Part shown: positions 2,703 to 17,038 of the stretch, in pieces
Numbering within the stretch: position 1 is the first letter of the stretch
Layout of the letters: the number at the start of each line of letters is the position of its first letter
IMG/VR virus record: IMGVR_UViG_2713896795_000004
Location: 1-18,456 of that record
Reading direction: 5' to 3' (one strand)
Source of the DNA: a virus
Lineage: Duplodnaviria > Heunggongvirae > Uroviricota > Caudoviricetes
Length of the DNA: 18,456 nt
Program-made: the position numbers and the translations under genes
Notes under the pieces: generated by a model
The model's database searches: none
The model's input: the letters and a program-made list of their open reading frames with translations, nothing else
What the model was told of the DNA's origin: nothing

Positions 2703-4549
<1,847 letters not shown>

Positions 4550-4974
4550 TTATTTAATACCATTACCAGAGAGAGAATAAAAATAATATCTTCAAAACTG
4601 TGACATATGTTGTTCTTTTATGTTGATTGTTACATGGTTGATGGTTTTGTGTGTTGACTAATAGTTTTTCAGTAATTTATTTGATTAATATGACATATGG
4701 AAAAGTCATTGCGTACTGGGGTAAATACATCTTATAGAGTATTAATATGGTTTATTACTGTGAATACTGTAATGGAGTAAATCATTTATTTTCATTAGTA
4801 ATAGGTACTCCCGAAAATCTGGGTGATCGTGGAGTTTTCGCCGCGAATTATAAAAAATATCTATGAGATTTTTTTATAAGAACACGCAATATCAATAGCT
4901 AAAAGTAATAAGCACCGAAACATATATAAAATACCAATCAATTGAAAATGAATAAAAAGTGAATAGGAAATCAC

Positions 4975-5544
4975 ATGGCAAAAAATAAAGACGATGGAAC
5001 CCGTTACACATATACGGAAATTGCCGAAAGATTTGGCGTAGAAATTAGTACCGCTTCGCGTATCTGGTCTGGAAAAGGACTGGATATTAACTGGCCTAAA
5101 AAATTAGTGGATCAGTGGTTACTAGCGAACGTAATCGAACCTATGCGTAATGGCGATGTAAAAGGAATGATTCATAAAGCTACACTACGCAAACTAGAAG
5201 CAGAAGCAGACCTGAAAGAATTAGAACTACGTCAACAATCGGGTGAACTAATTCCCGTTGCAGTAGTACAGCAAACATTATCACAATACTTCTATCAATT
5301 AAGACAAGTATTAAGAAGTATTCCCACATCAAGTTATGTTGAACTATTTGAATCACAGGACGCATTAGAATTAAAAATTAAATTACAGGATAAAATAGAC
5401 CGCCAGTTAGAAGAGATTGGCAGCTATGAATATGAGGGAACATATGAAGAACAACTATCAGAAGATGATGAAGGTACTAACGAGGGCGGCGAAATCAATC
5501 CTACCACCGAAGAAACAACTACCAGCGGAATGGGTAGAGAATAA
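4975..5544 (+). CDS. terminase small subunit (Nu1-like, N-terminal HTH), 189 aa
   Basis: N-terminal HTH-like segment YTYTEIAERFGVEISTASRIW, coiled-coil middle, acidic C-terminus. Sits immediately upstream of and overlapping the large terminase. AGGAAA before the ATG. Confidence 0.6.
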   Translation: MAKNKDDGTRYTYTEIAERFGVEISTASRIWSGKGLDINWPKKLVDQWLLANVIEPMRNGDVKGMIHKATLRKLEAEADLKELELRQQSGELIPVAVVQQTLSQYFYQLRQVLRSIPTSSYVELFESQDALELKIKLQDKIDRQLEEIGSYEYEGTYEEQLSEDDEGTNEGGEINPTTEETTTSGMGRE

Positions 5545-7345
5545 CCTAGTCTTCCCAGACGGCGAGCTACAGGGGCAAAGGGTCAAATTATTTGAGTTCC
5601 AAAAAAAGCCCTTGAATGACATAGTAAATCCCCGTATTCGTAAAGTGGTACTCATGAGTAGTGCTCAACTTCTCAAAACAACTGTACTTCAGAATAGTAT
5701 GTACTACTTCCTGGCAAATGATCCAAGTAACATGATCTTTGCGGGTGCAACTGGCGGTACTACAAGTAAGTTCCGTACTGGTAAATGGCAGGCAGTCATA
5801 GAGGCATGTTCGGTACTAAAGAATCTAGTAAGTAATAAGAATGATAAGAACTTTACTAATAACGATAAGACACAACAAAATTTAGATGGTACTTTTACTT
5901 ACTTTCTAACATTGGGTAGTAGTGCACAACTTCGCGGCCTGACAGCACCTCGCATATTTCTTGATGAAATATCCAACGTGGACGCGAGCGGGGATGAAGG
6001 CAACCCCCTGAAGCTAGCAGAACAGCGTACAAAGGCTTTTAGTAATCCCCTTATTATGTGTTGTTCTACTCCCCTTGATGAACATGACCTGATTACACAA
6101 CAGTACGAACAAAGTAATAAACAGAAGTTTTATGTACCGTGTCCACACTGTAACCACTCTCACGAATTAGTTTTTGAAAACGTTAAGTTTGACTGGAAGA
6201 TTATAGAAGGCGGTCGCCGCCGTATTCCTGATGCCGACACTGCAAGGCTAGAATGTCCAAAGTGTAGTAATGAAATCACAGAAGCCGAACGTGTACGAAT
6301 GATTCGTAAAGGAGAATGGATTGCAACAGCACCAGAGATTAAGGATATAGCTGGCTATCATGTCTCCCGCTTGTACTCTCCTATCAACTCTATCAAATCA
6401 ATTGTTGCCGACTTTGCCGAAGCACATTATACATTTGACCTGGCATCATTCTATAACAACGTATTAGGACTGCCATATATTGATAAAGAGAATAGCGAGC
6501 ATGACTTAGTATTATTAGAGAATCTAAGAGATAGTGAAATTGATATTGAAAATATACCAGATGATGTACTAGGGATCGTAATGGGCGTGGACCAGCAGCT
6601 TGATAGGTTGGAAATAAGCACACTAGGAGTAAGTGAAAAGAATCTATATGTACTTGATCACCGTAGTATCTACTCAATTGACTGTACTAAAATCGAAGCC
6701 CCAGCATGGAATAAGTTAACGGCCTTTGCAAATCATCCATTTAAAACACGTTCAGGTAAACCATTGAAGGTACTAGCCGGATTTGTCGATAGTTCAAACG
6801 GCAACGCAACCAGTACCGTGTACCGTTATTGCTCTAACTCTACTATCTTTAAACCTATCAAGGGTGGTACATCAAATACTAACCCACTATTCAAAGGTAG
6901 TACGGCTGGTGGTCACTCCCTGATTAACCTTAACCTTAACGTTAACTTAGGCAAGACTAACGTTAGACAGTTATTAAACCGTGCTGTATCAGATAATGAA
7001 AATAGTAAGGAAGTACAGATTCACTTTAGCCATTCAGTACCAGATGATTACTTTATTCAGGTTACATCAGAGAAGCGAGTAATAAAGGCTGGGGCGTGGG
7101 TATGGGTGAAGAAGATTAGTAGTGCACGTAATGAAACCTTAGACTGTTTAAACTATGCATTAATATGTTTCCAGTGGTATCTATCTAAGTTAGGTAGTCA
7201 ACCATACCGCCAGTTAAGGGAATATAACGCTAAACAAAAAGAGAAAGCAGGACTAAATAAAGAAGTAAATACAGAAGAAGCACCAACTAAGCCAACTCCT
7301 AAGCGAGTAATAAGGCCGCGTAAGGGTGGTGGTTTCTTTAAATAA
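5417..7345 (+). CDS. terminase large subunit, lambda GpA family
   Basis: Recalled similarity to lambda gpA: PAEWVENNLVFP...FEFQKKPLN versus lambda TAVEWADANYYLP...LPFQRAIMN; Cys/His cluster YVPCPHCNHSHEL...CPKC versus lambda HVACPHCGEE; GVDQQLDRLEI versus GIDSQLDRYEM. The track start at 5417 is TTG; in-frame ATGs at 5426, 5432, 5444 and 5465 are alternatives, so the start is uncertain and overlaps the terS 3' end. Confidence 0.85.
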   Translation: MAAMNMREHMKNNYQKMMKVLTRAAKSILPPKKQLPAEWVENNLVFPDGELQGQRVKLFEFQKKPLNDIVNPRIRKVVLMSSAQLLKTTVLQNSMYYFLANDPSNMIFAGATGGTTSKFRTGKWQAVIEACSVLKNLVSNKNDKNFTNNDKTQQNLDGTFTYFLTLGSSAQLRGLTAPRIFLDEISNVDASGDEGNPLKLAEQRTKAFSNPLIMCCSTPLDEHDLITQQYEQSNKQKFYVPCPHCNHSHELVFENVKFDWKIIEGGRRRIPDADTARLECPKCSNEITEAERVRMIRKGEWIATAPEIKDIAGYHVSRLYSPINSIKSIVADFAEAHYTFDLASFYNNVLGLPYIDKENSEHDLVLLENLRDSEIDIENIPDDVLGIVMGVDQQLDRLEISTLGVSEKNLYVLDHRSIYSIDCTKIEAPAWNKLTAFANHPFKTRSGKPLKVLAGFVDSSNGNATSTVYRYCSNSTIFKPIKGGTSNTNPLFKGSTAGGHSLINLNLNVNLGKTNVRQLLNRAVSDNENSKEVQIHFSHSVPDDYFIQVTSEKRVIKAGAWVWVKKISSARNETLDCLNYALICFQWYLSKLGSQPYRQLREYNAKQKEKAGLNKEVNTEEAPTKPTPKRVIRPRKGGGFFK

Positions 7346-7356
7346 GGAAAAATAAA

Positions 7357-7848
7357 ATGGCAATAGTTCGCAAAGTAACCCTAAGAGGCGATATCTTTAA
7401 AGGCGAGACTATTACATTCGACTACCCCGCAGGATCGGAAATTGATTTGATTGATCCTAACGGGGTAAAGACTTCATACACATACCCTTTCCCAGCTATT
7501 GATACTAGTAACTGGGATGCAGGTGTCTGGACTGCAATTATTAACAGTACCGTAGCGTATGGCGTACAACAATTCGAAGTAATAGATCCAACTTCAAAGG
7601 CGTCCGAATATAACGACCTGATGCAAATCATTAAAGATATTGATCAGATCATCATGGACAGAATTAAAGGCGGTGGTGTACTAAGTCAATCAATCCAAAA
7701 TAAATCATTAACATATGAAAGTAGTGAAATACTTATGAAGTTACGCCCTGTTTATGTCAGTCGTGCAAATGATTTACTTTCGGATATGAAAGGCTTTAAT
7801 ACTGGATGCCCTATTAAATCAATTACTACATTTAGGAGATCTCGTTAA
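7357..7848 (+). CDS. hypothetical protein between terminase and portal (163 aa); possible head-completion or accessory head protein
   Basis: AAGGA RBS and ATG start; its stop overlaps the portal start (TAATG). Function inferred from position only (lambda has gpW at the equivalent place). Confidence 0.45.
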   Translation: MAIVRKVTLRGDIFKGETITFDYPAGSEIDLIDPNGVKTSYTYPFPAIDTSNWDAGVWTAIINSTVAYGVQQFEVIDPTSKASEYNDLMQIIKDIDQIIMDRIKGGGVLSQSIQNKSLTYESSEILMKLRPVYVSRANDLLSDMKGFNTGCPIKSITTFRRSR

Positions 7849-9350
7849 TGTTCGGATGGAATAAAAAGAAAGTAGAAGAACCTAAACAAAAAGTTTTAGT
7901 ACAGAAGCCAGTGAAGCTAATGAAGAACAACCCTATGAAGCGTGCAATGTCTTCCCTGAATCTAGGATCTTCTAGTCCTGTTATCTCCTTTGGTTTCACG
8001 GGTGGTAATCAGGCAGGTAATATTAACGCCATCATTAACCGTACTCTACCTGTTATGGTTGCCGTGAGTCGTGAACTCTCGATTAAGAATGGTATTGTTA
8101 AGAAATATGTTTCTACTAACTCAGCAGGTGTAACAGGTGCGGATGGCCTATACATTCGTCCATGTACTCACTCTTCTGATAGTGAACAGGTTAACCAGTC
8201 AATCGATAAACAATTAGAAGATGCCTTCTATGCATGGGCGGAAGATCCTAAAGCCTTTTCACGTTGCGGTACTCTGGATATTAGTACCTTCCAACGTCTA
8301 GTAGAACGTACTCGTTCAGTAGATGGAGATTGTTTCATTCGTATTCACACTAAACCAGGTGAACTACCACAGGTTGAGATCATCGATTCAATGCGTATCT
8401 CTACCTATGAGAACCAGCTACTACCATCAGGTAACTATATTAGTAATGGTATCGAATTTGATATTAATACTAACCGTCCTGTAGCGTACTGGGTAACACG
8501 TTATAACCCTATCATGTATAACTATATGATTGGAGAACGTGAACGCGTACCAGCAGATGAAATTCTACACCTGTTTCAACAGGACTACCCAACGCAGCAA
8601 CGCGGGATACCTGATGTACATTCCGGTACTGAAAAGTTAAAAGAGCTAGAAGAGTTTATGTCAGCGGCAATTACTTCCCGTAAGGTTGCAGCGTCCGCAA
8701 TGGCATTTATCACTAATCCAGATAGTGACGATGTTCAGCTACTGACTGATGACAGTGTTTCGTACTATGATCAAGACTATCTAAATCCGGCTGCAATCGT
8801 AGAACTACAAGCAGGACAAGATATTAAAACAGTAAACCCAACTCAAACCACAGATGGAATTGATGAGTTTATTAATAACCAATTAATGATGATTGCAATG
8901 GGCTTGGATATTACAAAACAATCACTAACATCAGATACTAGTAATGCTTCATTCAGTGCAGCAAAACTGACTGATAAATTACAACAATCAACATTTAAAA
9001 GCCGCACTAATGCTTTAATTGTTTCGGTACTAAAACCTCTTTATATTGCATGGCTAAAATCTGCAATGCTAAATAGTAGTACGTTAAGCAATTTAAATTT
9101 TAGTGATTTTAATAAATTAACCCATGCACAATATGTACAGACTCGTCAAATCTCCCTTGATCCATTAAAAGACCTTCAAACCGAAGTATTAGCAATTGAT
9201 AACGGTTTAAAGAGTAAGGCAATGGTAATTTCAGAGATGGGATACGATCCTGTTATCGTCATGGAAGAGATAAAAAAGGAAAACAAGGAAAATGGAATTG
9301 AACCTGAACAAGAACCAGATGAGGGCGATCAATCTAACGCAGATCAATAA
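7848..9350 (+). CDS. portal protein (lambda gpB-like), 500 aa
   Basis: Canonical position after the large terminase, appropriate size, AGGAGA RBS. Weak recalled similarity to the lambda gpB region around ...NPAAIVELQAGQDIKTV...MIAMGLDITKQSL. Acidic C-terminal tail. Confidence 0.7.
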   Translation: MFGWNKKKVEEPKQKVLVQKPVKLMKNNPMKRAMSSLNLGSSSPVISFGFTGGNQAGNINAIINRTLPVMVAVSRELSIKNGIVKKYVSTNSAGVTGADGLYIRPCTHSSDSEQVNQSIDKQLEDAFYAWAEDPKAFSRCGTLDISTFQRLVERTRSVDGDCFIRIHTKPGELPQVEIIDSMRISTYENQLLPSGNYISNGIEFDINTNRPVAYWVTRYNPIMYNYMIGERERVPADEILHLFQQDYPTQQRGIPDVHSGTEKLKELEEFMSAAITSRKVAASAMAFITNPDSDDVQLLTDDSVSYYDQDYLNPAAIVELQAGQDIKTVNPTQTTDGIDEFINNQLMMIAMGLDITKQSLTSDTSNASFSAAKLTDKLQQSTFKSRTNALIVSVLKPLYIAWLKSAMLNSSTLSNLNFSDFNKLTHAQYVQTRQISLDPLKDLQTEVLAIDNGLKSKAMVISEMGYDPVIVMEEIKKENKENGIEPEQEPDEGDQSNADQ

Positions 9351-11154
9351 TGCAATTGATGAAGCTGATAGAACTGTAGAACTCTCCTTTGCCTCAGAAA
9401 TTCCAGTAGTACGCGACATTAAAGGGACTCTCTATAATGAGATCCTTTTATGCAGTCCTGAAAACGTAGACTTAAGCCGTCTTAATGACGGTGCACCTGT
9501 ACTAGTAGAACATGATGCAATGCGTCAAGTTGGTATAGTTGAGAATGCTCGCGTAGATATGGATAAAGTTTGCCGTGCTACTGTACGTTTTAGTGCACTT
9601 GGAACAGCAAATACTATCTTCGGTATGATCTTAGAAGGTATTCGCCCTAAAGTGTCCGTAGGTTATAACATCTTAGATTATCGTATTGATGGTAATAACC
9701 TAATTGTTTCAAAATGGGAACCCTATGAAATATCCAGTGTTTCGCAGCCAGCGGACAACTCAGTTGGGGTGGGAAGATCACTAAATAGTAATGAAGAAAT
9801 CACACTAGAGGATCTACCCAAAATGGAGCAAGAACAAAAAGAAGAACTAGTACAGGAAGTTGAAGTTATTAAGGAAGTACAGGAAGAAGAAGTACAAGCC
9901 GAAGTAATCGAAGAAGAAGTAGTAGTTCAGGAAGAATCAGTAGAAGTAGTAGAAGAACCGGAAGTAATTGAGGAAGTACAGGAAGTACAACCTGAATTAG
10001 TAGAAGAACGTTCTATTGCAATTACTGATATTCAAGAAAGCATAAATAAAGAAGTAGAAGCAAATCGTATTCGCGAACTTCAATCTATTTCTTTGGTACT
10101 AGGTGTTAGTACAGAAGAAGCAATTAACAACGGTGTAAGCGTAGAAGACTTTAAACGCTCACTAAATAAAGATAATAAATCAATTGATAAGGATATCAAA
10201 AAAATGGAAAAGAAATCTCTAATTAACGAAGGTCTACGTAGTCTAAAAGGTGAAACTCATGATCTAGAAACCTTCGAAAAAGGTGCACGCGGTTATAATG
10301 CAGACCTAAACGCTATGGTACGTTCTACCGCTGATACTACTTCTACTGTAACCGCAGCAGGTCTAGTAAAAGAAGAACTAGCAGACGCGTATATTCGTCA
10401 ACTACTCGCAGCTACTGTACTGGGCCAACTAGATGTAACTGTTTTTGGTGGCCTAGCGGGACGCGGCAATTTCTCTATCCCACGTGCTAAAGGTATGAAC
10501 CCAGCAGCTAAGTTTTACAATGAAGATGAAGCAGTATCCGACGGCTTCGAAACCTTCGATAAGATCACTCTAAAGCCTCGCATGTTCGCAGCAGGTATCA
10601 AGATCACTAAAGCAATGCTACTAAGCAACGCAGCTACCGAACGTTATGTTACCGACGAGCTATTACGCCAATGTTCTAACGGTCTAGAGTCCGCAGTATT
10701 TGCACAAATCGCTACTACTGTACCAGTACAGCAAACCGCTGTATCCGGTCAAGTATCCGAAGCAGACGTACAGAAAGCTATCGAAGCTATCTCCGCGAAA
10801 AACGTTGATATCAATCGTTGTGTTGCTATCGTGCATCCTTCTATGCTCGCTAAACTACGTCAAACCGCGGTATTGAATAACACCGCAGCAGTTGCAATGG
10901 TAGCTGGTCATCGTTATGACATGTGGCTAAACGACGAAGTACGCGTAATTGAATCTACTTTCGTAGCAGCAGATACTATTCTAATTGGTGACTTCTCTGA
11001 ACTAATTTTCGCTAACTGGAACGAAGGTCAAGAACTAGATTTTGATGATACTACTTACCGTGCAGCACAAACTATCGCTATCAGAAGTTTTCAGTACCTC
11101 GACGTAGCTATTGCACACGAAGAAGGATTTGTACTACTACAACTAAAACCATAA
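9292..11154 (+). CDS. fused prohead protease / acidic scaffold-like linker / HK97-fold major capsid protein (620 aa)
   Basis: N-terminal domain with candidate catalytic His in LVEHD (His74, nt 9511..9513) and Ser-containing segments. Acidic E/V/Q-rich repeat linker (aa 178-240). C-terminal domain with HK97-type MCP pattern: VAIVHPSMLAKL...MWLNDEVRVIESTFVAADTILIGDFSE compared with recalled HK97 gp5 IVLNPRDWHNI...MWGLPVVPT...FTVGGFD. Start may instead be the ATG at 9319. Confidence 0.7.
   Translation: MELNLNKNQMRAINLTQINNAIDEADRTVELSFASEIPVVRDIKGTLYNEILLCSPENVDLSRLNDGAPVLVEHDAMRQVGIVENARVDMDKVCRATVRFSALGTANTIFGMILEGIRPKVSVGYNILDYRIDGNNLIVSKWEPYEISSVSQPADNSVGVGRSLNSNEEITLEDLPKMEQEQKEELVQEVEVIKEVQEEEVQAEVIEEEVVVQEESVEVVEEPEVIEEVQEVQPELVEERSIAITDIQESINKEVEANRIRELQSISLVLGVSTEEAINNGVSVEDFKRSLNKDNKSIDKDIKKMEKKSLINEGLRSLKGETHDLETFEKGARGYNADLNAMVRSTADTTSTVTAAGLVKEELADAYIRQLLAATVLGQLDVTVFGGLAGRGNFSIPRAKGMNPAAKFYNEDEAVSDGFETFDKITLKPRMFAAGIKITKAMLLSNAATERYVTDELLRQCSNGLESAVFAQIATTVPVQQTAVSGQVSEADVQKAIEAISAKNVDINRCVAIVHPSMLAKLRQTAVLNNTAAVAMVAGHRYDMWLNDEVRVIESTFVAADTILIGDFSELIFANWNEGQELDFDDTTYRAAQTIAIRSFQYLDVAIAHEEGFVLLQLKP
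9823..10011. repeat. low-complexity acidic coding repeat (GAAGAA/GTAGAA-rich) inside the capsid ORF
   Basis: Translates to MEQEQKEELVQEVEVIKEVQEEEVQAEVIEEEVVVQEESVEVVEEPEVIEEVQEVQPELVEE; the DNA is built from imperfect gaagta/gaagaa units. Confidence 0.7.
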
Positions 11155-11166
11155 GGTACTTTCACT

Positions 11167-11487
11167 ATGAGGCATTTTACTAGCAATCAAATTGATTCTA
11201 CTTTTCTAAATGCCTTTGGTGAACCTATCACAATTAACGGGGCGACGTTCAAAGCTATTTTGGACAATCGCCCCGTAGTCATAGATAGCGGTACTGAAGG
11301 ACTAGTAGAAAGTACAGAAACATTTCTATCAGTGAAGACTGACGATCTAACTACTTTCAGTATCGCAATTGATTCCGAAGTAGTAGTACAGGGTACAAAT
11401 TACACTGTATACAATATCTATAATGATTTGAGCGGTATTTGTGAAGTTTACATAAGACCATCAACAATTAATAATTACGGGTGGTAA
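11167..11487 (+). CDS. hypothetical protein (106 aa); head-tail connector/adaptor candidate by position
   Basis: ATG ORF directly after the capsid gene, in the size range of HK97-like head-tail connector proteins. No motif evidence. Confidence 0.4.
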   Translation: MRHFTSNQIDSTFLNAFGEPITINGATFKAILDNRPVVIDSGTEGLVESTETFLSVKTDDLTTFSIAIDSEVVVQGTNYTVYNIYNDLSGICEVYIRPSTINNYGW

Positions 11488-11488
11488 T

Positions 11489-11884
11489 ATGGGACTATTA
11501 AGCGACGTACAAAAGACAATTAGAACCAGTCTGAATAATATCATGCCAATTCGAAAGGCAATGAATATCCAGGCAGGTAAAGATCTATTCATCTTAGTAT
11601 CAGTAAATCAGACATATTCACCAACCAACTTTGGCACACAACGCCAGACAGGAACATTCGATTTCCAATTTCTCCTAGTACCGGAACCATCAGTACAACT
11701 TCCCGCCGATTCCTACGGTACTATATTCGAATACTTCCGTACTAATACTATTAAAGAGTTTAAAGATAATAACGTCACTCTACTTTCTTATGAGTTTCAA
11801 GATAGCGAACAGGTAACAGATCCAACTACTGGCTATCAATCGTTATCGTTTGCAATAAATATTGTAGCAACTCAAAAACCATAA
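11489..11884 (+). CDS. hypothetical protein (131 aa); head-tail joining candidate by position
   Basis: ATG 1 nt after the previous stop (tightly coupled). Position-based call only. Confidence 0.4.
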   Translation: MGLLSDVQKTIRTSLNNIMPIRKAMNIQAGKDLFILVSVNQTYSPTNFGTQRQTGTFDFQFLLVPEPSVQLPADSYGTIFEYFRTNTIKEFKDNNVTLLSYEFQDSEQVTDPTTGYQSLSFAINIVATQKP

Positions 11885-11896
11885 GGAATATAGATA

Positions 11897-11924
11897 ATGA
11901 GTGATAATATTTTTACTGGTAGTG
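11897..11924 (+). pseudogene. 5' stub of a gene cut by IS2 (9 codons, MSDNIFTGS)
   Basis: AAGGAA RBS at 11883..11888, ATG at 11897, reading frame runs straight into the IS2 terminal inverted repeat at 11925. Confidence 0.35.
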
Positions 11925-11935
11925 TGGATTTGCCC

Positions 11936-12841
11936 CTATATTTCCAGACACCTGTTATCACTTAACCCATTACTGGCCCGCTGCCGTAGATATTCCCGTG
12001 GCGAGCGATAACCCAGTGCACTATGCGGATGCCATTCGTTATAATGCTCGAACGCCTCTGCAAGGTTCTTTGCTGCCGTTAACCCGTCTGGTTTGGGCAT
12101 GATACTGATGTAATCACGCTTTATCGTTTTCACGAAGCTCTCTGCTATGCCGTTACTCTCCGGACTCCGCACCGCCGTGTTCTTCGGTTCAAGTCCCAAC
12201 ATCCGGGCGAACTGGCGTGTTTCATTAGCCCGGTAGCATGAACCATTATCCGTCAGCCACTCCACTGGAGATGTCGGAAGCTCGCTGCCGAAGCGGCGTT
12301 CCACCGCTCCCAGCATGACGTCCTGTACTGTTTCACTGTCGAAGCCGCCCGTAGTGACCGCCCAGTGCAGTGCCTCACGGTCACAGCAGTCCAGCGCGAA
12401 CGTGACTCGCAGTTTTTCTCCGTTATCACAGCGGAACTCGAACCCGTCAGAGCACCATCGTTGATTGCTTTCTTTCACGGCCACTTTGCCAGTATGTGCC
12501 CGTTTCGATGGCGGTACAGCGGTTTTTCGCTCAAGCAACAGCGCATTCTGGCGCATGATCCGGTAAACACGTTTGGCATTGATAGCAGGCATACCATCAA
12601 GTTCGGCCTGTCTGCGAAGCAGCGCCCATACCCGACGATAACCATACGTGGGCAGCTCTCCGATAACATGGTGTATACGGAGAAGCACATCCGTATCATC
12701 TGAGTGACGGCTGCAGCGACCATCTTTCCAGTCATCGGTTCGTCTGAGAATGACGTGCAACTGCGCACGCGACACCCGGAGACAACGGCTGACTAAGCTT
12801 ACTCCCCATCCCCGGGCAATAAGGGCGCGTGCGCTATCCAC
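11936..12841 (-). CDS. insD: IS2 transposase OrfB (InsD), DDE integrase-like catalytic domain, 301 aa
   Basis: Matches recalled InsD sequence. Overlaps insC in the -1 frame at the AAAAAAG slippery site, so the InsCD fusion would arise by programmed frameshift. GTG start. Confidence 0.9.
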
Positions 12842-13164
12842 TTTTTTGCACGCCCATATTCAACGGCTTCTTTAAGGAGTTCATTTTCCATCGTTTTTTT
12901 GCCGAGCAGGCGCTGAAGTTCTTTAATCTGCTTCATGGCAGCAGCAAGTTCAGAGGCAGGAACGACCTGTTCTCCTGCGGCCACAGCAGTAAGACTTCCC
13001 TCCTGGTATTGCTTGCGCCATAGAAATAACTGGCTGGCTGCCACACCGTGTTGCCGGGCAACAAGGGAGACCGTCATTCCCGGTTCAAAGCTCTGCTGAA
13101 CAATAGCGATCTTTTCCTGTGTAGTACGCCGTCTGCGTTTCTCCGGTCCTAAGACATCAATCAT
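12799..13164 (-). CDS. insC: IS2 transposase OrfA (InsC), HTH DNA-binding protein, 121 aa
   Basis: Translation from the ATG at 13164 matches recalled InsC ([56 protein letters not shown]...). The track ORF extends further 5' to an upstream alternative start. Confidence 0.9.
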
Positions 13165-13256
13165 CTGTTCTCCAATGACTAGTCTAAAAACTAGTATTAA
13201 GACTATCACTTATTTAAGTGATATTGGTTGTCTGGAGATTCAGGGGGCCAGTCTAG

Positions 13257-13784
13257 AAAGGTAAATGCATCCCACGAGATTTAAAGGTTAACGAAACAAA
13301 CGCTGACTATCTTTTCCGTAAGTTCGGTGAACTTGAATCAAAACTCAACGAGCAGCGTGAGTATTACGAGGGCGTTATCTCGGATGGGAGTAAGCGTATT
13401 GCTGAACTGGAGAAAAGCGAAGAGCAACTCATCAACGAGCGTGACCATGCTGAGTCTGCTTTAGCTGATATGTACTTTGCAGCAACCGGTAACAGGCCGG
13501 AGTGGAGCAACTGGTTCGGCTTTTCAGATGCTGTCGATGCCGTGGTTGACAGAATAGCTGATTTAGAAGCTAAACAGCCATCGCCGGTAGTGCCGGATAA
13601 TGCATCAGGGTCGCTTGCTTATGCTTACAAAGAGCTTACGCCTGAGATTATGCGCGGTCATATCGCTGTATTCGAGCGATATGGAATAGCCCCAAACGAT
13701 AGCATTACCACAATTCAGGCACTGCGAATCGCGCTGGATGGTATAGAGCGGAGCAACGCCATGCTTCAGGGGAAAGGAGAGTGA
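13257..13784 (+). pseudogene. N-terminally truncated coiled-coil protein of the lambdoid early-accessory region (possibly Ea22-like), cut by IS2
   Basis: Reading frame is open from the first base after IS2 (stop TAG lies inside the IS2 end at 13254..13256) through 13784, with no start codon near the IS boundary. Coiled-coil-like LESKLNEQREYYEGVISDGSKRIAELEKSEEQLINE. The Ea22 assignment is from memory and weak. Confidence 0.45.
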
Positions 13785-13785
13785 T

Positions 13786-14301
13786 ATGGCGTTAACACAC
13801 AGCGAACTCTGTCAGATTGCGTACAAGTTCCTTAAGCGCAACGGGTTCAAGGTTTGTTTTCATGACCGCTTTATAGCTGTAACCAGTACCGGAGAACAGC
13901 CAGATGCTATGGGATTCAGAAATTCAGCATCATGCCTGATAGAGGCGAAGTGTTCTCGTGCTGACTTGTTGGCAGATAGAAAAAAGCGTTTTCGTAAAAA
14001 TCCGTCTCTTGGAATGGGCGACTGGCGATTCTTTATTAGTGAGCCGGGGATTATTTCAATTGAGGATTTACCACCTGGCTGGGGATTACTTCACGTTGTT
14101 AACGGAAGAGTACGGAAAGTACATGGGTGGCCAAAGGGCAATTGCTGTTGGGGTAATCCTGACGATAAGCCATTTACTGGAAATAAGCAGGTTGAATGCG
14201 ATTACATGTTATCTGCATTAAGGCGCATGGAGTTGAGAGGGCACCTTAATGAAATATATGACGGTGTAATTGTTAATAAGAAAGAAGGAAACGCGGCATG
14301 A
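13786..14301 (+). CDS. hypothetical protein with PD-(D/E)xK-like nuclease motif (171 aa)
   Basis: AAAGGAGAG RBS, ATG 1 nt after the previous stop. Motif ...EQPDAMGF...(12 aa)...LIEAKCSRADL resembles the PD...(D/E)xK core of restriction-endonuclease-fold proteins. Family not assigned. Confidence 0.5.
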   Translation: MALTHSELCQIAYKFLKRNGFKVCFHDRFIAVTSTGEQPDAMGFRNSASCLIEAKCSRADLLADRKKRFRKNPSLGMGDWRFFISEPGIISIEDLPPGWGLLHVVNGRVRKVHGWPKGNCCWGNPDDKPFTGNKQVECDYMLSALRRMELRGHLNEIYDGVIVNKKEGNAA

Positions 14302-15137
14302 CCACTATTACCAAAGAGCGACTGCTGACAATCAAGCAGTGGCGCGAAACATACGGACCTGGTAGCAACGTTGTACTGCCAGCAGAAGAAGCGGAAGAAC
14401 TGGCACGAATTGCTCTGGCATCGCTGGAAGCAAAACCAATAGGTGCTTTCCACATTGCAGAACAGCAGGTCGATGGCACAAGTGACTACATCAAGGATGG
14501 GGAGTGGCCTATTGATAACGGGATAATTGAAGTATACGCCGCTCCGCCAGTGCCGGTAGTACCTGGGGAAATTGCTGATGATTTAATGGAGAAATTACCG
14601 AAAAGTGATGCATGGGCTAATGGGTTTCGTGGTGGCTGGAACGCCTGCCGCGCAGTCATGCTTCAGTCCGGAAACTTTCGGAAAATCCCGGAAGCGTCAA
14701 CCAGCTCTCCGGTAACTCCGCCTCTTTTGCCTGGTGGTTTCACCATTGAGGATGCGAAGGAGTTACATGAAGACCTGGTTCGCAGCCACATAAGCCAGGC
14801 TTTAAGTGGCGAAAAGATGAAAAAGAAAGATCGCGAGGCTGATTTGCGCTGGATTCATGGCGTAATAGTTCAGGCTGCGTGGTTTGTAAAGGCATCACTG
14901 GAGCAGAATGCACTATCGGGCAACTCTCCGGTAACTCCGGATAGTTGGATAAGCTGTAGTGAGCGAATGCCGGAAGAAACGGGTGACATTATTGTTGTTT
15001 CGGATGGCATTGTAATGTCAGGGATTTCTTATTCTCGTCGTGACGGGTTCTATATGGCCGCATTGGAGTACGACGACGACGAACCAATTGACGGTGTAAC
15101 CCACTGGATGCCGCTGCCAGAACCGCCGCAGGGGTGA
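14298..15137 (+). CDS. phage protein with C-terminal DUF551-like domain (279 aa)
   Basis: ATGA start/stop overlap with the previous gene. C-terminal SERMPEE...VTHWMPLPEPP matches the recalled DUF551 signature (ER[ML]PE ... W-x-PLP-x-PP) common in lambdoid early-region accessory genes. Confidence 0.55.
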   Translation: MTTITKERLLTIKQWRETYGPGSNVVLPAEEAEELARIALASLEAKPIGAFHIAEQQVDGTSDYIKDGEWPIDNGIIEVYAAPPVPVVPGEIADDLMEKLPKSDAWANGFRGGWNACRAVMLQSGNFRKIPEASTSSPVTPPLLPGGFTIEDAKELHEDLVRSHISQALSGEKMKKKDREADLRWIHGVIVQAAWFVKASLEQNALSGNSPVTPDSWISCSERMPEETGDIIVVSDGIVMSGISYSRRDGFYMAALEYDDDEPIDGVTHWMPLPEPPQG

Positions 15138-15203: not shown

Positions 15204-15446
15204 ATGTTCTCTCTGATTCAACGTGGTCAGATATACACCGATAGCGCTGGCTATCCAGTAAAAATCATTCGTAGTACTGATCACTCAGTATTCTTCAAGA
15301 GGATGGATGGCTATCCTGGAAGAGTGTGCATCAGAAAATTCAATAATTTATTCGAACACATTGATCACAGAGAATATCACCAGATCCTGGCTGAAACAGA
15401 GCAGGAGAACCATCTGAAAAAATTACGTGCCATGCAAAGGAGATAA
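15204..15446 (+). CDS. hypothetical lambdoid early-region protein (80 aa)
   Basis: ATG ORF in the position occupied by ea-type genes in lambda; no motif evidence. Confidence 0.45.
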   Translation: MFSLIQRGQIYTDSAGYPVKIIRSTDHSVFFKRMDGYPGRVCIRKFNNLFEHIDHREYHQILAETEQENHLKKLRAMQRR

Positions 15447-15771: not shown

Positions 15772-15990
15772 ATGTACTTGACACTTCAGGAGTGGAACGC
15801 ACGCCAGCGACGCCCAAGAAGCCTTGAAACAGTTCGTCGATGGGTGCGCGAATGCAGGATATTCCCTCCTCCGGTTAAGGATGGAAGAGAGTATCTGTTC
15901 CACGAATCAGCGGTAAAGGTTGACTTAAATCGACCAGTAACAGGTAGCCTTTTGAAGAGGATCAGAAATGGGAAGAAGGCGAAGTCATGA
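15772..15990 (+). CDS. xis: excisionase Xis (lambda type), 72 aa
   Basis: MYLTLQEWNARQRRPRSLETVRRWVRECRIFPPPVKDGREYLFHESAVKVDLNRPVTGSLLKRIRNGKKAKS matches recalled lambda Xis. Overlaps the int start as in lambda. Confidence 0.95.
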   Translation: MYLTLQEWNARQRRPRSLETVRRWVRECRIFPPPVKDGREYLFHESAVKVDLNRPVTGSLLKRIRNGKKAKS

Positions 15991-17038
15991 GCGCCGGGAT
16001 TTACCCCCTAACCTTTATATAAGAAACAATGGATATTACTGCTACAGGGACCCAAGGACGGGTAAAGAGTTTGGATTAGGCCGAGACAGGAGGATAGCAA
16101 TCACTGAAGCTATACAGGCCAACATTGAGTTATTTTCAGGACACAAACACAAGCCTCTGACAGCGAGAATCAACAGTGATAATTCTGTTACGTTACATTC
16201 ATGGCTTGATCGCTACGAAAAAATCCTCGCCAGCAGAGGAATCAAGCAGAAGACACTCATAAATTACATGAGCAAAATTAAAGCAATAAGGAGGGGTCTG
16301 CCTGATGTTTCACTTGAAGACATCACCACAAAAGAAATTGCGGCAATGCTCAATGGATACATAGACGAGGGCAAGGCGGCGTCAGCCAAGTTAATCAGAT
16401 CAACACTGAGCGATGCATTCCGAGAGGCAATAGCTGAAGGCCATATAACAACAAACCCGGTCGCTGCCACTCGCGCAGCAAAATCAGAGGTAAGGAGATC
16501 AAGACTTACGGCTGACGAATACCTGAAAATTTATCAAGCAGCAGAATCATCACCATGTTGGCTCAGACTTGCAATGGAACTGGCTGTTGTTACCGGGCAG
16601 CGAGTTGGTGATTTATGCGAAATGAAGTGGTCTGATATCGTAGATGGATATCTTTATGTCGAGCAAAGCAAAACAGGCGTAAAAATTGCCATCCCTACAA
16701 CATTGCATGTTGATGCTCTCGGGATATCAATGAAGGAAACACTTGGTAAATGCAAAGAGATTCTTGGCGGAGAAACCATAATTGCATCTACTCGTCGTGA
16801 ACCGCTTTCATCCGGCACAGTATCAAGGTATTTTATGCGCGCACGAAAAGCATCAGGTCTTTCCTTCGAAGGGGATCCGCCAACCTTTCACGAGTTGCGC
16901 AGTTTGTCTGCAAGACTCTATGAGAAGCAGATAAGCGATAAGTTTGCTCAACATCTTCTCGGGCATAAGTCGGACACCATGGCATCACAGTATCGTGATG
17001 ACAGAGGCAGGGAGTGGGACAAAATTGAAATCAAATAA
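15968..17038 (+). CDS. int: tyrosine integrase Int (lambda type), 356 aa
   Basis: Near-identical to recalled lambda Int over its whole length (MGRRRSHERRDLPPNLYIRNNGYYCYRDPRTGKEFGLGRDRR ... HELRSLSARLYEKQISDKFAQHLLGHKSDTMASQYRDDRGREWDKIEIK). Catalytic R...H-x-x-R...Y context present. Confidence 0.97.
   Translation: MGRRRSHERRDLPPNLYIRNNGYYCYRDPRTGKEFGLGRDRRIAITEAIQANIELFSGHKHKPLTARINSDNSVTLHSWLDRYEKILASRGIKQKTLINYMSKIKAIRRGLPDVSLEDITTKEIAAMLNGYIDEGKAASAKLIRSTLSDAFREAIAEGHITTNPVAATRAAKSEVRRSRLTADEYLKIYQAAESSPCWLRLAMELAVVTGQRVGDLCEMKWSDIVDGYLYVEQSKTGVKIAIPTTLHVDALGISMKETLGKCKEILGGETIIASTRREPLSSGTVSRYFMRARKASGLSFEGDPPTFHELRSLSARLYEKQISDKFAQHLLGHKSDTMASQYRDDRGREWDKIEIK

Follow-up and report, generated by a model that had tools for sequence, protein, structure and literature searches.

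The 620-codon open reading frame described here is real and intact, and it very probably encodes a self-processing capsid precursor in which the counterparts of HK97 gp4 and gp5 are joined in their usual gene order. It lies within a stretch of 18,456 nucleotides of tailed-phage DNA (hereafter the window), and its product (68.5 kDa, pI 4.5) consists of four segments, namely an S78 protease (residues 1-165), an acidic linker (166-245), a delta-like domain (246-344) and a major capsid protein (MCP, 345-620) (Table 1). The first-pass annotation of this DNA had proposed an N-terminal protease, an acidic stretch and an HK97-type C-terminal domain in one frame, and the profile, alignment and fold evidence bears this out; it had overlooked, however, the helical delta-like scaffolding domain (about residues 246-344) by which the acidic stretch is separated from the capsid fold. 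The protein matches the PHROG family phrog_617 ('major head protein') from end to end (E 2.6e-88), its residues 7-616 aligning with positions 7-621 of the 626 in the profile. Its reading frame shares 59 nt with the end of the portal gene, and the start called by PGAP is identical in the ortholog of E. coli WGI31CT (618 aa, 86% identical), where the overlap with the portal gene is 53 nt.

Table 1. Features of the fusion gene and its surroundings (positions in the window)
Feature	Position	Strand	Remarks
Small terminase	4975-5544	+	Pfam/PHROG
gpA-type large terminase	5417-7345	+	Pfam/PHROG
Head-tail joining (adaptor-like) protein	7357-7848	+	Pfam/PHROG; R4C gp004 in the equivalent position is a structurally defined adaptor
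Lambda-family portal	7848..9350	+	Pfam Phage_portal_2, E 3e-61; order as in R4C and ep3
Fusion ORF	9292..11154	+	ATG start; 620 codons plus stop; stop codon 11152-11154
Predicted HK97-type (MEROPS S78) prohead serine protease domain, residues 1-165	9292..9786	+	Folded core 21-165
H74 codon, in LVEHD; predicted catalytic His	9511..9513	+	Invariant; paired by hhalign with HK97 gp4 H65
S122 codon, in KVSVGY; predicted catalytic Ser	9655..9657	+	Invariant; paired by hmmalign and hhalign with HK97 gp4 S114
E146 codon, in EISSVSQPAD; candidate third active-site residue	9727..9729	+	Invariant; aligned to HK97 gp4 E141
Acidic E/V/Q-rich low-complexity linker, residues 166-245	9787..10026	+	About 9.3 kDa, pI 4.05
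Predicted helical delta-like scaffolding domain, residues 246-344	10027..10323	+	Ends at near-invariant R344
Predicted mature HK97-fold MCP, residues 345-620	10324..11151	+	29.9 kDa; N-arm, E-loop, P-domain, A-domain
FII-like head-tail attachment (stopper) protein	11167-11487	+	Pfam Phage_attach, phrog_82; syntenic with L001
131-aa ORF of unknown function	11489-11884	+	With the stopper gene, closes the run of phage late genes before IS2
IS2 element, ends approximate	11925..13255	-	Encodes transposase domains rve and HTH_Tnp_1; annotated as IS2 in E. coli records

Two genes that are separate in HK97 could appear as one through a sequencing or assembly frameshift, or through a stop codon lost in this genome only. 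The HK97 genes are indeed adjacent yet separate (gp4, 3348-4025; gp5, 4028-5185), and a low-complexity linker is the type of sequence that is prone to indel errors. Against such an artificial joining speaks the distribution of the undivided frame: 738 database homologs from Escherichia, Shigella, Citrobacter, Salmonella and Enterobacter share it, as do the RefSeq ortholog L001, the cultured phages R4C and ep3 and the majority of the 150 best distant representatives. The best 120 of the 738 homologs, which reach 95% identity to the window protein, are all single ORFs and mostly 585-621 aa long, with a few partial entries among them. Indels among 119 close homologs are confined to the linker and all of them keep the frame. 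Purifying selection acts on all four segments, with dN/dS values against L001 ranging between 0.11 in the protease and 0.18 in the linker, and at the conserved alignment columns just 3 substitutions are private to the window protein. Because the single frame is conserved, we consider an artificial joining to be refuted and leave it practically no probability; the uninterrupted frame noticed in the first-pass annotation stands.

The N-terminal domain is predicted to be an S78-type prohead protease. The assignment is transitive and structural, because the window protein itself reaches no curated protease cut-off: in a Pfam scan its residues 1-175 match no family even at E 10, and TIGR01543 gives only 17.9-19.8 bits (E 7e-4 to 3e-3) against a cut-off of 59 bits. 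Its relatives, on the other hand, are recognised members of Pfam Peptidase_S78 (PF04586), which is matched by 33 of 34 aligned sequences with 42-59% identity to the window protein (best E 4.8e-14). A fold search with the domain returned T4 gp21 and the herpesvirus assemblins, capsid-maturation proteases of clan SH that share 10-16% sequence identity with it and are not fused to a capsid shell protein. The protease-like His (in LVEHD) and Ser segments pointed out earlier correspond to H74 and S122, both without variation in the 34-sequence alignment. Alignment to HK97 gp4 depended on the method: global pairwise alignment was unreliable and misplaced the His, hmmalign covered only the half containing the Ser, and hhalign put both residues in register with H65 and S114, which we take to be the catalytic residues of gp4, at E 0.0055 and with a low formal probability, the latter because the template is a single sequence. 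For E146 a catalytic role may be proposed from the same kind of alignment.

The neighbouring portal and terminase are of the lambda family and fusions of ClpP with a capsid protein are known from Paracoccus prophages (PMC6536676), and on these grounds the domain could be a ClpP/S49-type protease resembling lambda gpC. Neither the window protein nor its relatives match a ClpP, S49 or S14 family of Pfam, however, and no ClpP-fold protein stands among the structural matches listed for the domain; the S78 matches of the relatives, the gp21 and assemblin fold matches and the His and Ser motifs in register with HK97 gp4 all speak against this reading, to which we give next to no credence. Between the S78/U35 and ClpP/S49 folds that had been put forward for comparison, the evidence thus decides for the former.

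A second doubt concerns activity, since the domain could be a catalytically dead relic that serves as extra scaffold only, with any processing left to another enzyme. The window copy has diverged so far that the Pfam S78 model does not detect it, and it bears the private substitutions Y131R and T152Q in this domain. H74, S122, E146 and D155 are nevertheless invariant across relatives 27-81% identical, the window copy included, and the protease has the lowest dN/dS of the segments. Annotation of the window with Pfam and PHROG found no second protease gene between the portal and the head-completion genes, and the head modules of L001, R4C and ep3 hold none either. A dead relic is therefore very unlikely, and we continue with an S78 protease that is probably active.

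The linker that follows is rich in E (37%), V (21%) and Q (10%) over residues 166-243, with a net charge of -26. The stretch had been called an E/V/Q-rich repeat; the acidic enrichment is real, but the periodicity detected by Tandem Repeats Finder is weak, with 3.4 copies of a 15-nt unit at 69% matches and 2.1 copies of a 9-nt unit, so that the stretch is of low-complexity composition rather than a clean repeat. In the predicted model it has pLDDT below 50 and no secondary structure. Together with its standing as the sole segment with indels, this indicates a disordered linker of variable length and not a scaffold. The idea that the acidic stretch acts as a scaffold or delta domain consequently fails, that role fitting the helical residues 246-344 instead, and no link was seen to capsid size, the other function suggested for it: the mature part, with 276 aa, matches the HK97 and R4C proteins, both of which form T=7 capsids.

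Residues 246-344 are predicted to form the delta-like scaffolding domain. The model places helices at 248-270, 275-279, 284-291, 310-318 and 339-347 with pLDDT of about 70-80; the TIGR01554 profile (positions 42-384, 55.6 bits against a cut-off of 27.5) aligns to residues 285-617, extending into this segment; and a profile built from the homolog alignment pairs over 246-344 with the N-terminal region of the unfused 394-aa capsid protein gp3 of phiXacJX1. All three point to a scaffolding segment that precedes the mature MCP. The domain would end at R344, kept in 42 of 47 sequences.

In the capsid domain, Pfam Phage_capsid (PF05065) matches residues 358-617 (E 7e-17; 62.1 bits against a cut-off of 24.2), so that with TIGR01554 two capsid families score above cut-off and the HK97 MCP pattern recognised in the C-terminal part is upheld. 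The full-length model has pLDDT mostly of 80-96 over residues 364-620, and Foldseek with this fold returned the capsid proteins of phiXacJX1, R4C, D3 and HK97 (9lbm, 8gta, 9ous and 1ohg) at E values of about 5e-15 to 4e-13 and TM-scores, normalised to target length, of 0.60-0.69, confirming the HK97 fold by structure prediction as well. The R4C capsid 8GTA is also matched by profile (E 4e-67), its chain beginning opposite about residue 355. The exact N-terminus of the mature protein is probably residue 345, judging from the conservation of R344 and from the analogy between a cleavage after this residue and the one between K103 and S104 that we take to be the HK97 site.

A separate MCP or protease-scaffold protein could still be made from a nested gene, as with lambda C/Nu3, by an internal start or by a frameshift, in which case the true protease-to-capsid ratio would not be 1:1. 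There is an AGGA 10 nt upstream of the in-frame M305, and a run of seven A at 10198-10204 is conserved in L001; a shift there would reach a stop within 7 codons and yield a product of about 310 aa comprising protease, linker and half of the delta-like domain. A self-sufficient MCP would, however, need a start codon where the delta-like domain begins (about residue 246), and there is none. Among 47 diverse aligned sequences 21 retain M305 and 6 retain M342, the latter lacking a Shine-Dalgarno sequence, so that the search for an internal ribosome-binding site and start that had been recommended yields no conserved one. The run of A encodes Lys-Lys within a Lys-rich stretch, and its conservation was compared in a single relative, 86% identical. 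We regard nested products as very improbable, and the single precursor with a protease on every subunit as the better reading.

Comparison with known systems places this precursor close to HK97 in design and far from it in sequence. HK97 gp4 and gp5 together have the same two folds in the same order, with the catalytic His and Ser in register and, in both, a helical delta or delta-like domain that precedes the capsid fold; in sequence the two are only remotely similar, the protease matching at E 0.0055 and the capsid profile at about 1e-8. Because gp4 and gp5 are separate genes, the HK97 protease is packaged in sub-stoichiometric amounts, through its free C-terminal tail, as known from the work of Hendrix and Duda, whereas in the window the protease is covalently joined 1:1 to the capsid protein through the 80-residue acidic linker. 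The mature part has 276 aa against the 282 aa of the HK97 capsid chain (PDB 1OHG).

The full architecture in one gene is found in gp006 of roseophage vB_DshS-R4C (629 aa), which follows the adaptor and portal genes as in the window; its protease domain is 36% identical to ours (E 2e-19) and its capsid domain 23%, and it belongs to a different clade with an alphaproteobacterial host. The chain deposited for the T=7 virion of R4C (PDB 8GTA) comprises only residues 362-629, the last 268, with 1-361 absent. This is consistent, by analogy, with self-removal of the N-terminal part, although the 268-residue chain could in principle reflect the modelled extent rather than a mapped N-terminus; the R4C paper (PMC10276861) describes neither protease nor processing and contains no SDS-PAGE or mass-spectrometry processing data. 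In Escherichia phage vB_EcoM-ep3 (Jilinvirus) the single 682-aa major head protein ep3_0031, encoded directly after the portal gene, scores above cut-off for both Peptidase_S78 (38.6 bits against 21) and Phage_capsid (162 bits). The N-domains of ep3_0031 and of its relatives in Arya, Persinger, phiRSP and ECO1230-10 are 46-48% identical to that of the window protein, whereas their capsid halves have no BLAST similarity to it. Their linkers are longer, and the phages, virulent or temperate, are cultured ones, unlike the prophage type of the window.

The rarity that the first-pass annotation implied for such a fusion is contradicted by its distribution, and the protease-capsid fusion architecture is already known. 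A search with the N-domain gave 5100 clusters, and among the best 150 representatives 114 are at least 540 aa long, so that the fusion is the dominant architecture of the protease subfamily. Names for such fusions exist in PHROGs and NCBIfam as well as in GenBank records and papers. Two curated families are dedicated to exactly such proteins, PHROG 4523 ('major head and protease protein'; E 5e-39) and NCBIfam NF045541 ('prohead protease/major capsid protein fusion protein'; E 1.6e-35), both matching about residues 20-290. The window protein does not belong to NF045541, as it reaches 122.8 bits against a cut-off of 525 bits, with profile positions 1-260 of 634 matched, and L001, ep3 and R4C likewise fall short of a full-length match. 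As the matches to these two families stop after some 260 N-terminal positions, the capsid half of the window protein, which differs from theirs, represents a different lineage. The same design principle recurs with different hosts in the actinobacteriophage 'capsid and protease fusion' proteins of clusters AU, AN, EE and AW and in the S78-capsid fusions of thaumarchaeal proviruses (PMC6563490), and some documented fusions combine other protease or capsid families, including ClpP/S14 with Mu gpT in Paracoccus (PMC6536676) and chymotrypsin-like proteases. Papers on Stx-phage Sp5 and on CBASS were considered as precedents and set aside since they concern other arrangements, and our literature search brought up no biochemical work on a triple fusion of the S78-delta-capsid kind. 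When the ORF was compared by megablast with 50,697 phage records, no match appeared, for which reason phage relatives were sought by tblastn. Being widespread and documented, the design is an ordinary one.

The gene itself sits in a tail-less prophage remnant of an E. coli chromosome, truncated by IS2. Homology to L001 (86% identical) ends at 11924, and the terminal inverted repeats of IS2 lie at 11933-11965 and 13214-13246; L001 goes on with tail fibre and tail tube genes, and alignment to this intact relative indicates that IS2 stands in place of them. The window element probably makes no infectious particles, and because its host element is truncated the fusion gene may have no present function here. 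Packaging modules of the cf-PICI type are head-only and tail-less by design, in islands of 10-18 kb (10.1101/2025.02.11.637232); we rejected this identity, given that tail-gene loss coincides with IS2 at 11925 and that L001 continues into tail genes. It is a very unlikely proposition that the strongly acidic, length-variable linker is a functional element instead of a passive tether. If true, some -26 charges per subunit would line the procapsid interior with roughly 10,000 negative charges, the linker could be an electrostatic spacer that separates 415 tethered proteases and excludes DNA until processing, and variation in linker indels could tune the timing of assembly or maturation. A related and equally speculative idea is that the remnant may go on producing capsids, to be completed with tails of other prophages in the manner of cf-PICIs.

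Under the preferred reading of a self-processing precursor, about 415 copies would come together on the portal as a T=7 procapsid whose shell is built by the C-terminal domains. The helical delta-like domains would be its internal scaffold, and one protease per subunit would be held inside by the disordered acidic linker, a tether in place of the free C-terminal tail of a separate protease. Crowding after assembly may activate the proteases, which would cut near the conserved R344-S345 junction; residues 1-344 (38.7 kDa) would be degraded and leave the shell, and the mature subunit of about 30 kDa would stay as the shell expands with DNA packaging. By a rough estimate, with an assumed inner radius of 22 nm, the 1:1 protease load amounts to about 16 MDa and some 44% of the procapsid volume, which is crowded though not impossible.

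As a discovery this carries little weight, fusions being common and named in curated resources and the R4C capsid (PDB 8GTA) of the same family being solved. The enterobacterial clade is nonetheless labelled by PGAP as 'phage major capsid protein' only, and owing to this label and to the Pfam miss in this copy the protease function is missing from the annotation of hundreds of prophages in Escherichia, Shigella, Citrobacter and Salmonella. The family would offer a convenient single-gene system in which an MCP would carry its own scaffold and protease at a fixed 1:1 stoichiometry.

The features of the window and of L001, a related, intact prophage locus in E. coli WGI31CT, are listed in the table. 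The start of the fusion ORF lies inside the 3' end of the portal gene, and PGAP (the NCBI annotation pipeline) picks the equivalent start for the L001 ortholog (618 aa, 86% identical), which it labels 'phage major capsid protein'. With the start sites as called, unusually long overlaps occur between consecutive late genes, of 128 nt between the small and large terminase genes (the large subunit having a TTG start) and of 59 nt between the portal gene and the fusion ORF, while their equivalents in L001 measure 119 and 53 nt in the PGAP calls. The elements that the first-pass annotation had read in this frame were all located in the protein: the His of LVEHD is H74, the Ser segment is VSVGY with S122, the E/V/Q-rich stretch comprises residues 166-243 (37% Glu, 21% Val, 10% Gln; net charge -26), and the C-terminal HK97 capsid pattern corresponds to Pfam Phage_capsid at residues 358-617 (E 7e-17), with TIGR01554 also matching. 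The stretch had in addition been called a repeat; its composition stands, but it is not a clean tandem array, showing only a weak 15-nt period (3.4 copies, 69% matches).

Features of the window and of the related locus L001
Feature	Coordinates	Strand	Remarks
OLD-family ATPase/TOPRIM nuclease	2703-4523	-	stand-alone, 606 aa; Pfam AAA_15 and OLD-like_TOPRIM
Small terminase	4975-5544		head module, first in order
gpA-type large terminase	5417-7345		head module, after small terminase
Head-tail joining (adaptor-like) protein	7357-7848		head module
Lambda-family portal	7848-9350		head module, directly before fusion ORF
Fusion ORF	9292-11154	+	620 codons, ATG start; ORF calling
A7 homopolymer (codons AAA AAA A)	10198-10204		in delta-like domain; common to L001
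FII-like head-tail attachment protein	11167-11487		head module, after fusion ORF
ORF without known function	11489-11884		last in head module
IS2	~11925-13255	-	imperfect 33-nt terminal inverted repeats 11933-11965 / 13214-13246
IS2 orfB	11936-12841	-
IS2 orfA	12799-13209	-
Early region of lambdoid prophage	13470-15137
ead/Ea22-like ORF	13786-14301		in early region; phrog_9263, E 1e-122
DUF551 protein	14298-15137		in early region; 279 aa
DUF4222 ORF	15204-15446		near early region
Lambda-type integrase	15968-17038		right end of window
ybhC	from 17173		right end of window
'Pyocin knob domain-containing S74 family peptidase'	L001 19335-22559		1074 aa; tail fibre with intramolecular chaperone

A direct Pfam scan of the N-terminal domain gave no match, and TIGR01543 (HK97 proheadase) remained under its cut-off (E 7e-4). 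In an alignment of 34 relatives that are 42-59% identical to this domain, 33 members matched Pfam Peptidase_S78 (best E 4.8e-14), the invariant columns included H74, S122, E146 and D155, and the AlphaFold model built from the alignment was confident (pLDDT 88.9, pTM 0.80). Profile alignment with HK97 gp4 placed H74 on H65, S122 on S114 and E146 on E141, H65 and S114 being the residues that we take to be catalytic. The N-terminal domain is an S78/clan SH capsid-maturation protease, and a ClpP/S49 identity was rejected in its favour. The core proposal, of one frame in which a linker connects a protease (S78 being among the types offered) to an HK97 capsid protein, was correct.

The full-length model of the protein (pLDDT 77) splits the middle region in two. 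Residues 165-250, the acidic linker, have pLDDT values below 50 and lack secondary structure; this is the sole indel-tolerant segment of the protein, all indels in 119 close homologs falling within residues 181-245 and preserving the frame. Residues 248-347 are modelled as successive helices (pLDDT ~70-80). Positions 42-384 of TIGR01554, a model that takes in the HK97 delta domain, align to residues 285-617, and the family profile aligns across the region of residues 248-347 to the N-terminal part of the phage phiXacJX1 capsid protein (394 aa, unfused). The helices together with these two alignments therefore identify a scaffolding (delta-like) domain as a segment separate from the acidic stretch. 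The delta domain of HK97 has been described as a scaffold that each capsid protein carries by fusion, at a 1:1 ratio (PMC10275583). The first-pass annotation had missed this segment and had offered the acidic stretch as scaffold or delta domain, a role that does not fit, since the stretch is predicted to be disordered and it is the helical segment that aligns to the delta region; the stretch itself is a tether.

Among 5.8 billion proteins searched, 738 homologs were found, the best 120 of which, from Escherichia, Shigella, Citrobacter, Salmonella and Enterobacter, are single ORFs mostly of 585-621 aa, with a few partial entries. Residues 1-175 alone, used as query in an exhaustive search, yielded 5100 representative clusters; among the best 150 of these, 114 reach 540 aa or more, and in 87 phmmer detects homology to the C-terminal domain of the window protein. 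The dN/dS values against L001 ranged from 0.11 in the protease to 0.18 in the linker, with 0.14 in the delta-like and 0.16 in the capsid domain, and at columns with a conservation of 97% or more the window copy has only 3 private changes (range in relatives, 0-5). A sequencing artefact behind the single frame was rejected because the same frame occurs in the homologs, the linker indels are in frame and dN/dS is low.

There was no convincing sign of a separately made capsid part when the in-frame internal starts of residues 150-370 were checked for Shine-Dalgarno sequences: only M178 and M305 have any such sequence, the delta-like domain does not open with a start codon, and neither M305 nor M342 is conserved (kept in 21 and 6 of 47 diverse sequences, respectively). 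A shift of -1 or +1 at the A7 run would lead to a stop within 5-7 codons and a protease-linker-partial-scaffold product of ~310 aa; no sign that recoding is used there was found in the sequence, and the run could be a chance Lys-Lys run.

Foldseek searches with the full-length model matched the capsids of phiXacJX1, R4C, D3 and HK97 (E 5e-15 to 4e-13), and the family profile matched the capsid chain of roseophage vB_DshS-R4C (PDB 8GTA) with E 4e-67. The product of R4C gene 006 has 629 aa; over its first 172 residues it shares 36% identity with the window protein and keeps the His and Ser motifs. The R4C virion is T=7 with 415 capsid copies, and the deposited chain contains residues 362-629 only (PMC10276861). 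The start of this chain aligns opposite window residue ~355, just upstream of which lies R344, a residue that 42 of 47 diverse sequences share. Taking the HK97 cleavage site to be between K103 and S104, we infer by analogy that the window protein is cleaved at or near R344-S345. After such cleavage the mature protein would have 29.9 kDa and the discarded part 38.7 kDa; 415 copies of the latter, at a 1:1 load, would amount to ~16 MDa inside the procapsid, or roughly 44% of its volume (a rough estimate with an assumed inner radius of 22 nm), making the interior crowded and the packing feasible. As read from its sequence, the protein would be one self-processing precursor in which a linker joins an S78 protease to an HK97 capsid protein.

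At its right end the window shares 97-99% identity with many E. coli genomes, and by its sequence the window is chromosome of Escherichia coli or of a very close relative. Homology to L001 ends at 11924, at the start of IS2, and beyond this breakpoint L001 continues with the tail fibre and then the tail tube gene. Because the tail genes of L001 start where IS2 begins, the fusion ORF lies in an IS2-truncated, tail-less prophage remnant. A design like that of capsid-forming PICIs, head-only modules naturally without tail genes, was rejected, tail loss in the window being the outcome of truncation. IS2 forms the junction between the head module and a lambdoid ead/Ea22-DUF551-xis-int segment adjoining ybhC. 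Here int lies on the strand of the head genes, an arrangement that differs from a lambda prophage and suggests an IS2-mediated deletion or rearrangement, or else two different prophage remnants; among 5,426 complete E. coli genomes, not one has the whole head module-IS2-int configuration. The L001 prophage, which sits in yegD, uses a serine recombinase, and the position of its tail fibre gene, directly after the head-completion genes and ahead of the tail tube gene, is unusual. Upstream of the terminase genes, on the opposite strand and inside the prophage, the OLD-family protein matched the PADLOC 'Old' model (E 1.5e-74) more strongly than AriA and GajA; it is likely an anti-phage defence gene, and the flanking ORFs revealed no partner for it.

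The rarity of the fusion that the first-pass annotation had implied does not hold. Residues ~20-290 are matched by two families named for such fusions, PHROG 4523 ('major head and protease protein') and NCBIfam NF045541 ('prohead protease/major capsid protein fusion protein'). The window protein, coliphage vB_EcoM-ep3 and R4C all score far below the NF045541 cut-off of 525 bits and hence fall outside that lineage. In the ep3 major head protein Peptidase_S78 and Phage_capsid each score above the Pfam cut-off, the homolog in Pseudomonas phage PPpW-3 is labelled 'major capsid protein and peptidase U35' in GenBank, and 'Capsid and protease fusion' is used routinely as an annotation in actinobacteriophages. 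Fusions of S78 to capsid proteins have been described in thaumarchaeal proviruses (PMC6563490), and ClpP-gpT fusions in Paracoccus prophages (PMC6536676). In the 543-aa 'Phage capsid-like C-terminal domain-containing protein' of the mycobacteriophage Mycofy1 head (PDB 9lw6), the capsid part of the family profile matched only residues 301-501, and this chain may be a further capsid protein that carries a long extension or a fusion at its N-terminus. The protease-capsid fusion is an already known and widespread design, and the one useful by-product of its analysis here is an annotation gap, the protease domain being unlabelled in this enterobacterial clade.
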